Shown piece after piece: positions 35,686 through 55,973 of a stretch of DNA of 64,000 nt (positions within the stretch are counted from its first letter, which is position 1; each line of letters begins with the position of its first letter). The notes beneath the pieces were generated by a model. That model searched no databases and was not told where the DNA came from. It worked only from the letters and a program-made list of their open reading frames with translations. This DNA is from a virus, in the IMG/VR virus record IMGVR_UViG_3300005731_000127, positions 1 through 64,000 of that record; one strand, written 5' to 3'. Made by a program: the position numbers and the translations under genes.

Positions 35686-35753
35686 TGGAGAGTACGGGTA
35701 ATGCTCCCGTTAGTCAATATTGCAAGTATTAACACCAACCTTTTGGACTCCCC
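35686..35753 (-). tRNA. tRNA-Ala(UGC), compact
   Basis: Loop CTTGCAA; G3:U70; noncanonical T loop. Confidence 0.7.
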
Positions 35754-35757
35754 TCAT

Positions 35758-37682: not shown

Positions 37683-37684
37683 TA

Positions 37685-37760
37685 TGTGATTGGTAGGGCT
37701 TGATCCTACATTACGAGAGGCTCTATAACCAATATTGCGTTTTCATTAAACTACAATCAC
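37685..37760 (-). tRNA. tRNA-like, anticodon undetermined
   Basis: Acceptor GTGATTG/CAATCAC, D and T stems intact, anticodon arm irregular. Confidence 0.5.
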
Positions 37761-37764
37761 AAAA

Positions 37765-37838
37765 TGCCGCTGGTGGGAATCGAACCGCACACATCTCCCA
37801 GTAAAACGTGGGAGGCTCTACCGTTGAGCTACAGCGAC
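37765..37838 (-). tRNA. tRNA-Lys(UUU)-like with 8-nt anticodon loop
   Basis: TCCCA-CGTTTTAC-TGGGA; bulged T stem. Confidence 0.6.
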
Positions 37839-37939: not shown

Positions 37940-39589
37940 TTATACTTCTACAAGATGCAGAAGCTCTTGATCCATTGCTGCATTGAACAAGTCCGCAGCA
38001 GTTTCAATTTTTCCGTCCATGATGAATTTCACGTTCGAGGCTGAGTATCCAGACATGTAGAATACGTTTCGTGTATTTCCGAATGTCTCGAATTTAGTTC
38101 CACTTCTTCCTCCATAAAACGAATTAGGGATATTCCATAGTACGATCTTAAACGAGTTAACATAGTCGTCTGAAAATCCCGCGTTTCTTAGCTTTCGCAA
38201 TGCAGACTCTACATTAGTCTTTCCTAAATCTGCCGGATTAAATTCTCCGTCACTGATACACAGAATTCCTTCTGGAAAATCAGCTTCTGGAGTTCCGGAG
38301 TTTAACAAGTCGCAGAAAAGACTGATAACACTTTGGAAGTTTGTTCCGCCATAAGAATTACCTCTGTCGTTATGCCATTTTTCTGATGGCGTTCCGCCTC
38401 TCCATTTTTTCATTGCCGCTTTATTTGCAAATTCAATATAGTGATCAGTAAAATCACCAGTCAAGAATTCGTTGAAGTATAAAGCAATCGCCTTAGAAAC
38501 ATCGTATGATGAATACTTAGTTCCGGTTGCTGTACATTCCATTGATGACGAAGTATCGCGAACAACAATAAATCGAGTTAAGTTTTCGCTATCCTTAGCT
38601 TTATTAACAATTTCGTAAAACTGCTTATCGACAGTCTTTGTGAAATTCGCATCATGGTTAAAATTTAGCTCACAAAGTAGTTCGTGAACATAACCAGTAT
38701 ACTTAACTGTTTCTTCTTTGTCAACCCATCCTGAGTATTTATCTGACAATCCTTGGTTTTTCAAGAATTTGCTTCTAACAAGAAGATTTAATGCACGACC
38801 ATGAATTTTAGCAAAGTCGATCTTGTCAAATTTTGACTGAGAAATCAACTGCTGCCACTCATGAGCGGTTCCGCTAGACTTAAGTTTGCGGTATTTTTTG
38901 TAAGTTCTGCCATCGTTTTTCTTTCCGAATAGCCTAGAACAAATCCACTTAGCAATTTGGTTATTTGCTTCAGCTTCAATTGTTGTAACTTGTGAGTTAG
39001 AACGGATTTGCGGCAAATACTTCTTCATCAAGTTGACTGTTTTGTCATTCTCAAGTAAAGAAAGAAGCAGATCACCGAACCTTGACCAGTTCAAAATACT
39101 ACCAGACCAGTCATGGTAAACCAAGTCAGCACGCAACATCACAATCAGGTCTTTACAAGACCCAGCCGATAAGAAGAGTCCAATGTTTTTCCAGAAAAGA
39201 CTTTCATCTTTTTGGTGCAACCAGATCATTCTCATGATTGATTCGTGCTTGAGTTCCGCACCAGACTGAGCCTCTTTAGTCTTAATGCCCATCCCGATAA
39301 TGTCAGTCTTACGACTAATCATTCTCATGTAGATAGTAAACTTAACAAAAAGTTCCGGATTATCCGCGAACAATACAGAACAATCTTTAGCGATATCGGA
39401 ATATCTACGTGGAGATTTGTATTCTCCAAGCTTACCAAACTGGTCTACATATTCGTTTCCAGTCGTCGAAAATTTTTCCGCACCGTTACCACTTAGTGTA
39501 CGAGCGGAGTTTTTCATTCCGGCGTTGACGAATGAGTTGTTCGAAGTTTGCGTGCTTTTTCTTTTAATTGTTCTCTTTGTGTCAAACAT
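37940..39589 (-). CDS. DUF2828-type protein with C-terminal vWA domain (Ro60/TROVE-like architecture)
   Basis: N-terminal NGA..FSTTGN..VDQF; helical middle; MIDAS-like VVRDTSSSM, GGTNFQSV, ISDGEF, IVLWN, SGYS. Confidence 0.8.
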   Translation of the reverse strand: MFDTKRTIKRKSTQTSNNSFVNAGMKNSARTLSGNGAEKFSTTGNEYVDQFGKLGEYKSPRRYSDIAKDCSVLFADNPELFVKFTIYMRMISRKTDIIGMGIKTKEAQSGAELKHESIMRMIWLHQKDESLFWKNIGLFLSAGSCKDLIVMLRADLVYHDWSGSILNWSRFGDLLLSLLENDKTVNLMKKYLPQIRSNSQVTTIEAEANNQIAKWICSRLFGKKNDGRTYKKYRKLKSSGTAHEWQQLISQSKFDKIDFAKIHGRALNLLVRSKFLKNQGLSDKYSGWVDKEETVKYTGYVHELLCELNFNHDANFTKTVDKQFYEIVNKAKDSENLTRFIVVRDTSSSMECTATGTKYSSYDVSKAIALYFNEFLTGDFTDHYIEFANKAAMKKWRGGTPSEKWHNDRGNSYGGTNFQSVISLFCDLLNSGTPEADFPEGILCISDGEFNPADLGKTNVESALRKLRNAGFSDDYVNSFKIVLWNIPNSFYGGRSGTKFETFGNTRNVFYMSGYSASNVKFIMDGKIETAADLFNAAMDQELLHLVEV

Positions 39590-39806: not shown

Positions 39807-39891
39807 TACTTCTGGAGGGAGTTGCACCCATTGATATCTACCCCACTGTTTTATATCGCTGGCTTCGTAGACCAGTGTGGGAACCAGAAGC
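39807..39891 (-). tRNA. D-armless tRNA-Arg(ACG)-like
   Basis: Acceptor GCTTCTGG/CCAGAAGT, CTGGT-CTACGAA-GCCAG, long V arm, 3-bp T stem. Confidence 0.65.
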
Positions 39892-39899
39892 AAAAAAAC

Positions 39900-39960
39900 A
39901 AGTCTCATTATTAAAAAATTTTACAGATTTTCTTTTTAAATAATTTGCTGTATGAGACTT
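39900..39960 (-). ncRNA. short Y-RNA-like RNA 4 with GUA anticodon-like hairpin
   Basis: Stem AAGTCTCAT/ATGAGACTT, ACAGCAAAT, AAAAT-CTGTAAA-ATTTT. Confidence 0.65.
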
Positions 39961-41536: not shown

Positions 41537-41633
41537 TGTGAACGGCTGGATTCGAACCAACATCTACTTGCCAACTTTAGAGTCAACTTTCGTAGGATGC
41601 CTCCCTAGCGTTTGCCAATTTCGCCACGCTCAC
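41537..41633 (-). ncRNA. tRNA-like RNA with noncanonical central domain
   Basis: Acceptor GTGAGCG/CGTTCAC, Leu-type D arm, T arm; no standard anticodon arm. Confidence 0.6.
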
Positions 41634-43287: not shown

Positions 43288-43290
43288 ATG

Positions 43291-43362
43291 CACCAACGGC
43301 AGGAGTTGCACCCGCCCACCTTGATTTGGAGTCAAAGTCGCCTCTACGGAACATTCGCTGGT
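43291..43362 (-). tRNA. tRNA-Trp(CCA)
   Basis: TTTGA-CTCCAAA-TCAAG; G73. Confidence 0.85.
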
Positions 43363-43369
43363 ATAAAAG

Positions 43370-43436
43370 CGGCCCCACAGGGAGTTGCACCCCGACCATC
43401 CCCGCCGGGACGCTCTATCTATTAAGCTATAGGACC
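43370..43436 (-). tRNA. tRNA-like RNA lacking an anticodon loop
   Basis: Acceptor, D and T arms present; anticodon arm is TCCC-GGCG-GGGA. Confidence 0.6.
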
Positions 43437-43711: not shown

Positions 43712-43713
43712 TT

Positions 43714-43808
43714 AACACTGACGGGATTCCATACCCGCATTACCACCTTTTGCGGTGGCGTCCTTGTCTGGCGACCAAACCAGCGGTCAGGATATTAGAC
43801 GACAGTGA
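43714..43808 (-). tRNA. tRNA-like RNA with expanded D loop and 6-nt anticodon loop
   Basis: CCACC-GCAAAA-GGTGG; ~33-nt D loop. Confidence 0.4.
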
Positions 43809-43809
43809 G

Positions 43810-43890
43810 TGGTAGGAGAGGGATTTGCACCCCCACAGTCTTAGACGCTTGATTTACAGTCAAGGGAACTCGCTAATGTTCAGTCCTACC
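43810..43890 (-). tRNA. tRNA-Tyr(GUA)
   Basis: CTTGA-CTGTAAA-TCAAG, V arm. Confidence 0.88.
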
Positions 43891-44341: not shown

Positions 44342-44426
44342 TGCGGGGCGTGGGAATCGAACCCTAGACCTCCAGATGACACGTTAAGGTCGATAGCTTA
44401 GAAGGCTATTGCCACTGACGCCCCGC
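44342..44426 (-). tRNA. D-armless 9/3 tRNA-Arg(UCU)-like
   Basis: 9-bp acceptor GCGGGGCGT/ACGCCCCGC, ATAGC-CTTCTAA-GCTAT, long V arm, GGG-TTCGATT-CCC. Confidence 0.7.
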
Positions 44427-44436
44427 TTGTCTCATT

Positions 44437-44464
44437 ATTATATGATGTTAATCCTGAATGTCAA
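44437..44464 (-). promoter_or_regulatory. sigma70-consensus promoter
   Basis: TTGACA-N16-TATAAT, about 10 nt upstream of the tRNA-Arg(UCU)-like gene. Confidence 0.8.
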
Positions 44465-45707: not shown

Positions 45708-46080
45708 TCGCCAGATTGGGTAATAAGGTTCTGACAAACCCCATGACTACTTACGCAGCCAAACTAACATTTCTGTTTGCATTTACGTTTTGATACGTTT
45801 TTAGGTAGCCTCATATCATCTACCGCATGCAGTTATCACCTACGTGACCAGTCGATACCATTCGTTCCCGTATATGTACTGGCTTCTTTTTAACTTTTAT
45901 ACCTAGTACGAACCCTATTTGCACTTCTTTATGTGTTTTACAACAGGGGAAATGGAAACGGCGAGAATTGAACTCGCGTGTTGTATCATTTCAACAATAA
46001 CCTCTACATGCTTATCCTACTTCAAGCAGGAAAAGTCTGGTTATGTGTCCAGAGACGTGATTTCGTTACGCCCACTTAAT
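45708..46080 (-). ncRNA. ssrA: circularly permuted two-piece tmRNA
   Basis: 3' TLD (GCGAG-TTCAATT-CTCGC-CGTTTCCA, ending 45953) precedes 5' TLD GGGAACGAATGGTATCGAC (starting 45869); G3:U70; tag ANRNVSLAA* at 45751-45780; outer ends approximate. Confidence 0.88.
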
Positions 46081-55858: not shown

Positions 55859-55891
55859 GTCTGGTCTTTTCGTTACAAAAAAATACAATAA

Positions 55892-55964
55892 TGCTCCCAC
55901 AGGGACTCGAACCCTGAACATTCCGTTTTAGAGGCGGCTACTCTACCAATTGAGTTATAGGAGC
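55892..55964 (-). tRNA. amber suppressor tRNA (CUA)
   Basis: Canonical acceptor, D and T arms; loop CT-CTA-AA; anticodon stem has only 3 Watson-Crick pairs. Confidence 0.75.
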
Positions 55965-55973
55965 AAGAGCATA

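Follow-up and report, generated by a model that had tools for sequence, protein, structure and literature searches.

Can a gene that has a complete arginine anticodon arm and no D hairpin still encode a functional tRNA, and what would then take the place of the missing arm? The question is raised by an 85-nt gene on the minus strand of the IMG/VR virus record IMGVR_UViG_3300005731_000127 (44342..44426; G1 at 44426, discriminator A at 44342, CCA not encoded). The record is about 83.7 kb long and about 62% complete, and its first 64 kb (64,000 nucleotides) are referred to here as the window. To our knowledge, the cloverleaf is treated as universal for tRNAs on bacterial ribosomes, the shrunken mitochondrial tRNAs being the only well-known exceptions. 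A sequence-only reading of the locus had proposed a 9/3 tRNA-Arg(UCU) in which a pseudoknot replaces the D arm. The analysis presented here indicates that the UCU gene is probably a functional tRNA-Arg(UCU) with a non-cloverleaf fold; it would be an elongator tRNA for AGA, and probably for AGG too, from a conserved, mostly phage-borne family of non-cloverleaf tRNAs.

Read along the minus strand, the full order of the gene is GCGGGGCGT / CAGTGGCA / ATAGC CTTCTAA GCTAT / C / GACCT TAACGTGTCATCTGG AGGTC / TA / GGG TTCGATT CCC / ACGCCCCGC / A. The 5' strand of the acceptor stem, GCGGGGCGT (44418..44426), forms 9 bp with ACGCCCCGC (44343-44351) and is followed by the 8-nt strand CAGTGGCA (44410-44417), which contains no hairpin and replaces the D arm. 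The anticodon arm ATAGC-CTTCTAA-GCTAT (44393..44409) carries UCU at 44400-44402, with U33, C35, U36, A37 and A38 present. A single C separates this arm from the variable region (44367..44391), where the 5-bp stem GACCT/AGGTC closes the 15-nt loop TAACGTGTCATCTGG. The T arm GGG-TTCGATT-CCC (44352..44364), preceded by TA, has a 3-bp stem. Every element that had been listed in the sequence-only reading was found in the sequence at 44342-44426, on the minus strand.

Standard tools do not recognize this layout. ARAGORN called neither the UCU gene nor a second gene of the same design (see below) in its standard and mitochondrial modes, and the UCU gene was unmatched by the Rfam tRNA model RF00005 at the gathering score. 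Where a canonical tRNA has a D stem-loop and a 7/5 branch, the UCU gene has only 8 nt between the acceptor and anticodon stems. The best Rfam match was tRNA-Sec (RF01852; 33.2 bits, cut-off 47 bits), in whose alignment the D arm appears as a deletion. A long acceptor stem, a short T stem and a long variable arm are common to both, whereas tRNA-Sec has a 6-bp D stem and the anticodon UCA, and the UCU gene has no D stem and the anticodon UCU.

The match to tRNA-Sec would speak for a recoding (missense) tRNA of the allo-tRNA type, charged with Ser or Ala through the variable region or the acceptor stem and misreading AGA. Allo-tRNAs have a 12-bp branch split 8/4 or 9/3 and a long variable region, some occur in phages, and the 9/3 forms include anticodons for AGA/AGG; they keep, however, a Sec-like D stem-loop (long stem, tetraloop), a free V arm and Ser or Ala identity (Mukai et al., PMC5389517). 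The analogy with allo-tRNAs that had been drawn for this locus therefore holds for the 12-layer acceptor branch and fails at the D arm: the UCU gene has no D hairpin, its V loop is engaged in a pseudoknot and it carries Arg marks. Since allo-tRNAs retain the D stem-loop (PMC5389517), the UCU gene is not one of them. Their identity elements were also missing from it, with no G3:U70 and no free long V arm; pair 3 is G-C in the UCU gene and U-A in its companion. Moreover, the discriminator is A, in contrast to G73 of E. coli tRNA-Ser (PMC9976931), and reading AGA, the commonest Arg codon, as Ser would change most phage proteins. Recoding is thus a highly improbable function for this gene.

The companion gene, a tRNA-Arg(ACG) of the same design, lies at 39807..39891 on the minus strand and was identified from its sequence and from a covariance model of the family (R2, see below). 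Its order is GCTTCTGG / TTCCCACA / CTGGT CTACGAA GCCAG / C / GATAT AAAACAGTGGGGTAG ATATC / AA / (T)GGG TGCAACT CCC(T) / CCAGAAGT / A, with the 8-nt strand and the 15-nt loop of the UCU gene. The strand CCCAC (39877-39881) is complementary to GUGGG (39842-39846) in the same register as GTGGC:GTCAT of the UCU gene, and the unconstrained minimum-energy fold of the ACG gene predicts the long-range helix. The two genes are 50% identical and each is nearer to genes on other contigs, so they are not recent duplicates.

Some features of the ACG gene deserve mention in their own right. Its T loop TGCAACT (39820-39826, minus strand) has G in place of U55, and the end of its variable loop (39838-39840, minus strand) reads A-G, against G-G in the family. 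A similar double change, G-A in the loop together with the T loop TTAGATT, occurs in another family member (L052:3806-3890). The changes in the ACG gene may represent a co-change at a contact resembling the 18:55 elbow contact. Additionally, the 12-mer TAATAATGAGAC is present on the minus strand at 39902-39913 and 44429-44440, the only two copies in the window. The distance to the gene downstream is 10 nt for ACG and 2 nt for UCU, and at the UCU gene it overlaps the -10 hexamer; at that position the ACG gene has TTTAAT, and a -35 match is absent. The 12-mer could be a shared processing signal or a promoter remnant.

In the UCU gene, CAGTGGC of the D-replacement strand can pair with GTCA(T)CTG of the V loop, as had been claimed. 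The core of this pairing consists of 5 bp, GUGGC:GUCAU, joining gene positions 12-16 with 47-51; the 5' strand lies within CAGTGGCA (44411..44415, minus strand) and the 3' strand occupies variable-loop positions 7-11 (44376..44380, minus strand). In the register of the family (strand positions 3-7 with variable-loop positions 7-11) the pairs are C-G, G.U, G-C, U-A and G.U, so that two of the five are G.U and the helix is weak. For this gene alone, the complementarity between strand and loop amounts to -7.9 kcal/mol, a marginal value that was equaled or bettered by 5.3% of shuffled loops, and the anticodon stem was not formed in the minimum-energy fold. Complementarity barely above chance is what would be expected of a pseudogene, that is, a decayed tRNA gene without a D arm whose complementarity arose by chance, and close relatives of the phage do have an ordinary tRNA-Arg(UCU). 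The weight of the strand-to-loop pairing comes from covariation in the family and not from the UCU gene's own complementarity.

Relatives were sought in several ways. Blastn searches of the GenBank phages with the UCU gene, the ACG gene and a 4-kb stretch remained without a match, and the exact T-arm/acceptor pattern found only unrelated short fragments in viral contigs (L002-L005). With the vWA neighbour protein as query, related loci were not found. The phages related through the Ro60-like protein (L006-L030) had ordinary tRNA-Arg and no family member, and for this reason the search was carried out by sequence pattern instead. Apparent D-armless Ser(GCU) genes in L006 and L019, picked up by a first model (R1) and a descriptor scan, proved to be ordinary tRNA-Ser read in the wrong register and were rejected. 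The IUPAC patterns were built from the positions common to the UCU and ACG genes, leaving the pseudoknot columns free save for the closing C:G pair. These scans yielded 9 viral contigs, 19 metagenome contigs and 3 Verrucomicrobia genomes. When the anticodon positions were freed as well, 18 of the 19 metagenome matches had Arg anticodons (UCU 14, UCG 3, ACG 1) and one had UAU.

The R2 covariance model, built from 24 sequences, gave 55-99 bits for members, 42.6 bits for one relative with a Tyr anticodon and at most 43 bits for canonical tRNAs; it found further members with CCU, UCU and GUA anticodons. The UCU gene matched this model over its full length (67.2 bits, E 1e-23) and the ACG gene scored 83 bits. 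Altogether, 36 related genes with the same layout were found in unrelated viral contigs, cultured phages and three Verrucomicrobia genomes. Their common order is an acceptor stem of 8 bp, a strand of 8-9 nt, an anticodon stem of 5 bp with a 7-nt loop, 1 nt, a stem with a 15-nt loop, 2 nt and the T arm. The segment lengths of the UCU gene are those of the family, except that its 5' strand is one nucleotide longer and the segment preceding the T stem one nucleotide shorter. Conservation extends to the loop context CU-NNN-AA and to the T loop TTCRA. The discriminator varies among the members (A 14, U 8, G 8, C 1), a point against the reading as tRNA-Arg; CCA is encoded behind it in most of them, and the members are located in tRNA arrays.

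Blastn with the member from Escherichia phage Av-05 brought up look-alikes in 337 phage records of GenBank (Vibrio 298, Acinetobacter 32, Aeromonas 3, Escherichia 2, Salmonella 1, Salicola 1), and annotation under the match was absent in 24 of the 25 records listed. R2 confirmed the layout in Vibrio phage vB_ValS_X1, Acinetobacter phage vB_AbaM_Kimel and Salicola phage SCTP-2. The member in Kimel (NC_049492.1, L065; 75820-75909) is covered by the CDS of a 29-aa "hypothetical protein" on the opposite strand, with a homing endonuclease gene directly after it. Within 1.3 kb, the metagenome contig L049 (7347-8638) has three members (UCG, CCU, UCU) beside a canonical tRNA-Arg(UCU). Members with ACG and UCU anticodons were also observed inside the tRNA arrays of the three Verrucomicrobia genomes (L061, L062 and L063), among them the complete chromosome of Oceaniferula spumae NT6N (NZ_AP026866.1; L062 7613-7697), so the design is not restricted to free phage genomes.

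Covariation was analyzed in two alignments, A2 (MAFFT, 24 sequences) and A4 (model-fitted, 31 sequences). In A2 the pseudoknot was 99.2% paired, with double changes in 4/5 pairs, and the whole structure was 93.3% paired, as against 69.3% in shuffles (0/500 reached the observed value) and 39-48% with the partners slid. In A4 the pseudoknot was 97.4% paired, again with double changes in four of the five pairs, and the whole structure 95.3%. One of the two middle pseudoknot pairs of A4 was CG 17, GC 5, AU 4, GU 2 and UA 1 times, and the other was AU 16, CG 8, GC 4, UA 2 and GU 1 times. The pseudoknot support is on a par with that of the anticodon stem, which was 99.4% paired in A4 and doubly changed in 5/5 pairs; the acceptor helix was 99.6% paired, all 8 of its pairs being doubly changed. 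In the V stem, G-C, A-U and C-G are conserved and the fourth pair is mostly mismatched (22/31); this pair is standard in both genes of this phage (C-G in the UCU gene). The covariation analysis of homologues that had been suggested as a check thus gave 97-99% pairing, with four of five pairs covarying. Since this covariation is as strong as that of the anticodon stem, the long-range helix is real in its 5-bp core.

These results bear directly on decay of the gene. Fixed segment lengths and compensatory changes recur in dozens of unrelated contigs, several cultured-phage families and three bacterial genomes, and the UCU gene keeps nearly all of the family-invariant single-stranded residues and a perfect promoter. 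A pseudogene with chance complementarity is therefore an explanation to which we give almost no credence, and a functional tRNA-Arg(UCU) is the reading pursued here.

The pseudoknot proposed in place of the D arm was thereby borne out in its 5-bp core, which covaries across the 31 members, and not in its 3-bp extension (CAG:CUG). This extension, past a bulged U, is specific to the UCU gene, has no counterpart in the family and would consume one G of a near-invariant GG. An alternative extension, which would join the GG to the U and C on the 5' side (columns 10:58 and 11:57), was 92% pairable, mostly as conserved U.G and C-G, and may prolong the pseudoknot. The two Gs, which follow the pseudoknot strand, are kept in 29/31 and 30/31 members and the A after them in 26/31. 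In ordinary tRNAs U8 is conserved, and in the family the T after the 8-bp acceptor, a U8-like residue, is kept in 28/31 members. The invariant unpaired residues comprise this T, the A that precedes the anticodon stem, AA(A) and GG at loop positions 2-4 and 14-15, respectively, and the A that precedes the T stem; the UCU gene holds all of them except loop position 4 (C, not A).

The conserved residues suggest how the core may be rebuilt. The 5 nt before the anticodon stem would substitute for the D-stem 3' strand (positions 22-25, then 26), a place suggested by the single conserved A that links them to the anticodon stem. Their variable-loop partner would be the equivalent of the D-stem 5' strand, and in the putative three-dimensional arrangement the pseudoknot would stack on the anticodon stem. 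The N-U-G-G-A after the partner strand probably serves as a short D loop, in which G18 and G19 would make the elbow contact to the T loop and A20 would be the determinant for ArgRS. In the UCU gene, the U-G-G-A right after the pseudoknot 3' strand (44371..44374, minus strand) is, from its conservation, the candidate for the relocated G18, G19 and A20.

The 9/3 description is one way to read the acceptor and T stems. Nine and three standard pairs are indeed present in the UCU gene, whereas the family is 8/4 and the first T-stem pair, the fourth pair of the family, is A.A here. This pair is mismatched in both phage genes (T.T in the ACG gene), and an A of the A.A mismatch in the UCU gene can instead pair with the U8-like T, which gives 9/3. 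Twelve stacked acceptor/T layers would result in either case, as 8 + 4 in the family and as 9 + 3, or 8 + a non-standard pair + 3, in the UCU gene.

Several lines of evidence point to arginine. The bacterial Arg identity set includes C35, U/G36 and A/G73 (PMC9976931), and the UCU gene fits it with its anticodon UCU, C35, U36 and discriminator A. The main determinant for E. coli ArgRS is A20 in the D loop (PMC9976931). A D loop is absent from the UCU gene; the residue next to the conserved GG on its 3' side is A in this gene and in 26/31 members, and this A may be equivalent to A20. Compared with a canonical tRNA-Arg(UCU) (RF00005; for instance that of a relative, L006:6255-6328), the UCU gene shares the CU-UCU-AA loop, C35/U36, the discriminator A, the T loop TTCGA, the 12-layer acceptor/T branch and the place in a phage tRNA array. 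It differs in having no D hairpin, the D-stem equivalent being a pseudoknot between a strand that precedes the anticodon arm and another from the 25-nt variable region, and in the acceptor/T split, 8/4 or 9/3 in the knotted family and 7/5 in the canonical tRNA.

The coding needs of the phage are consistent with this identity. ARAGORN, its mitochondrial mode and Rfam together found tRNA genes for every amino acid except Arg, and in this phage Arg anticodons occur in the UCU and ACG genes only. UCU and ACG form the usual minimal anticodon pair for Arg codons. Among the Arg codons of 87 ORFs, AGA is the most frequent (362/845), followed by CGT 155, AGG 127, CGA 106, CGC 57 and CGG 38. The large arrays of L033 and L052 likewise have Arg tRNA of this design only. 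The anticodon loop, the C35/U36/A73 set, the codon usage and the missing canonical tRNA-Arg all agree with the Arg(UCU) assignment of the sequence-only reading, which is thus supported in part.

The same arrays help to judge another possibility, namely a tRNA-like decoy or regulator acting off the ribosome. It might, for example, sequester or block a host enzyme directed against tRNA-Arg, such as an anticodon nuclease or a defence toxin, or bind a modification enzyme or ArgRS. In L048 (UCG) and L049 (UCU) the odd gene is adjoined by a canonical tRNA-Arg that has the same anticodon, so the two kinds may not be equivalent; a second decoder would be redundant there. This phage also has several further unusual tRNA-like RNAs, along with a Ro60-like RNA-binding protein, and the T loop of its ACG gene has G for U55, all of which would suit a decoy. 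However, no other Arg tRNA is present in the otherwise full arrays of this phage, L033 and L052, and the conserved acceptor/T branch, the discriminator, the encoded CCA and the 7-nt anticodon loop exceed what a decoy of the anticodon arm would need. Moreover, the anticodons follow the ordinary Arg set UCU, CCU, UCG and ACG. A role as decoy is therefore considered unlikely, and decoding of AGA by a functional tRNA-Arg is retained as the preferred function.

The promoter that had been noted directly upstream of the gene, together with a prediction of strong expression, is present. The sigma-70-type sequence TTGACA-N16-TATAAT runs from 44464 to 44437 (44437..44464, minus strand), and the -10 hexamer ends 10 nt before G1, a spacing that would leave a leader of about 4 nt. 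It is the sole perfect match in the window, where 0.13 are expected. Sites with at least 11/12 matches numbered 17 genome-wide, as against 5.0 +/- 1.9 by chance, and 15 of the 17 are on the minus strand. In the whole record there are three perfect promoters, at 44464, 64627 and 65454. Near-consensus promoters were also found 12-14 nt upstream of the family members L037, L038, L042 and L060.

The UCU gene sits in a 180-bp gap flanked by two small minus-strand ORFs, and an ORF of 133 aa begins 26 nt downstream of it. Family searches with the neighbouring ORFs returned nothing informative. No terminator was found between the UCU gene and the 133-aa ORF, so the UCU tRNA is probably the 5' part of a longer transcript. 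Starting at the gene's own promoter, the host RNA polymerase would probably make a transcript that opens with the tRNA and continues into the next ORF, and the tRNA would then be excised by RNase P and 3' nucleases, receive CCA from a host enzyme and be charged by the host ArgRS before any decoding. None of the 30 tRNA genes of this phage encodes CCA, so its absence from the UCU gene is normal here. Genes for ArgRS or a CCA-adding enzyme were not found in about 83.6 kb (about 62% of the genome); with no ArgRS gene in that sequence, a host enzyme would have to charge the UCU tRNA.

The surrounding region is rich in small structured RNAs. A minus-strand tRNA array with a permuted tmRNA extends over 35.6-46 kb, and a further tRNA occurs at 55.9 kb. 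The permuted (two-piece) tmRNA gene (45751-46011, minus strand) matched Rfam RF04321 over its full length with 68.9 bits. Several tRNAs of this phage are off-consensus. The tRNA at 37765-37838 (minus strand; Rfam tRNA 49.5 bits) has an 8-nt anticodon loop in which ARAGORN reads the four-base anticodon UUUU, and it is possibly of the frameshift type or related to Lys. A tRNA of the amber-suppressor type with the anticodon CUA lies away from the main array (55891-55965, minus strand); TAG is the rarest stop codon in the 87 ORFs (TAG 11, TGA 31, TAA 45). Standard ARAGORN also skipped tRNA-like genes that were found by Rfam or by its mitochondrial mode, namely Ala-UGC, Thr-GGU, Trp-CCA, Cys-GCA, Tyr-GUA and two others; the seven positions are 35687-35755, 37684-37761, 41537-41633, 43290-43362, 43370-43436, 43713-43787 and 43809-43890. 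Directly downstream of the ACG gene, amid these small RNAs, a 549-aa protein (37940-39589, minus strand) matches PHROG 850 "RNA-binding protein" and DUF7788.

Other RNAs with an abnormal D region or a pseudoknot resemble the UCU gene only in part. The D-armless mitochondrial tRNAs (animal mt-tRNA-Ser(AGY) and nematode tRNAs; PMC4394434) likewise have no D hairpin and are often missed by standard finders. They are truncated and served by adapted mitochondrial factors, whereas the UCU gene has a full length of 85 nt, with the helix apparently rebuilt from a relocated strand, and the knotted family would have to work with the ordinary bacterial machinery. Plant RNA viruses carry tRNA-like structures, and tmRNA a tRNA-like domain, that have pseudoknots or an abnormal D stem and are nevertheless recognized by tRNA enzymes. 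In the plant-virus structures, however, the pseudoknot builds the acceptor stem and not the D stem, and they are located at genome 3' ends; the tmRNA domain has no anticodon arm, whereas the UCU gene has a complete arm with a sense anticodon. Full-text literature searches, with most subscription journals outside their coverage, gave no description of the present layout, and the knotted D-hairpin-less design, found in no paper, is apparently undescribed.

The family thus comprises full-length tRNAs that appear to break the cloverleaf topology in that one D-stem strand, and probably the D loop as well, has its place behind the anticodon arm. Members occur in cultured Vibrio, Acinetobacter and Salicola phages and in an E. 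coli phage, and are unannotated in the records checked. If these tRNAs are charged and used, tRNA gene finders and Rfam will need a new model, and the Arg tRNA complements of phages, together with analyses of their codon usage, have been undercounted. ArgRS, RNase P, EF-Tu and the ribosome would also have to accept a rewired core, a point of relevance to tRNA engineering and to orthogonal pairs. A more speculative idea, which we regard as possible and rather doubtful, is that bacterial ribosomes, EF-Tu, RNase P and ArgRS routinely use knotted-core tRNA, and that phages keep the design to escape host enzymes that recognize or cleave ordinary tRNA-Arg, such as anticodon nucleases and defence toxins, while decoding AGA and CGN. 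If charged and used, the family would make it possible to test whether conflict with tRNA-targeting host defences has shaped phage tRNAs.
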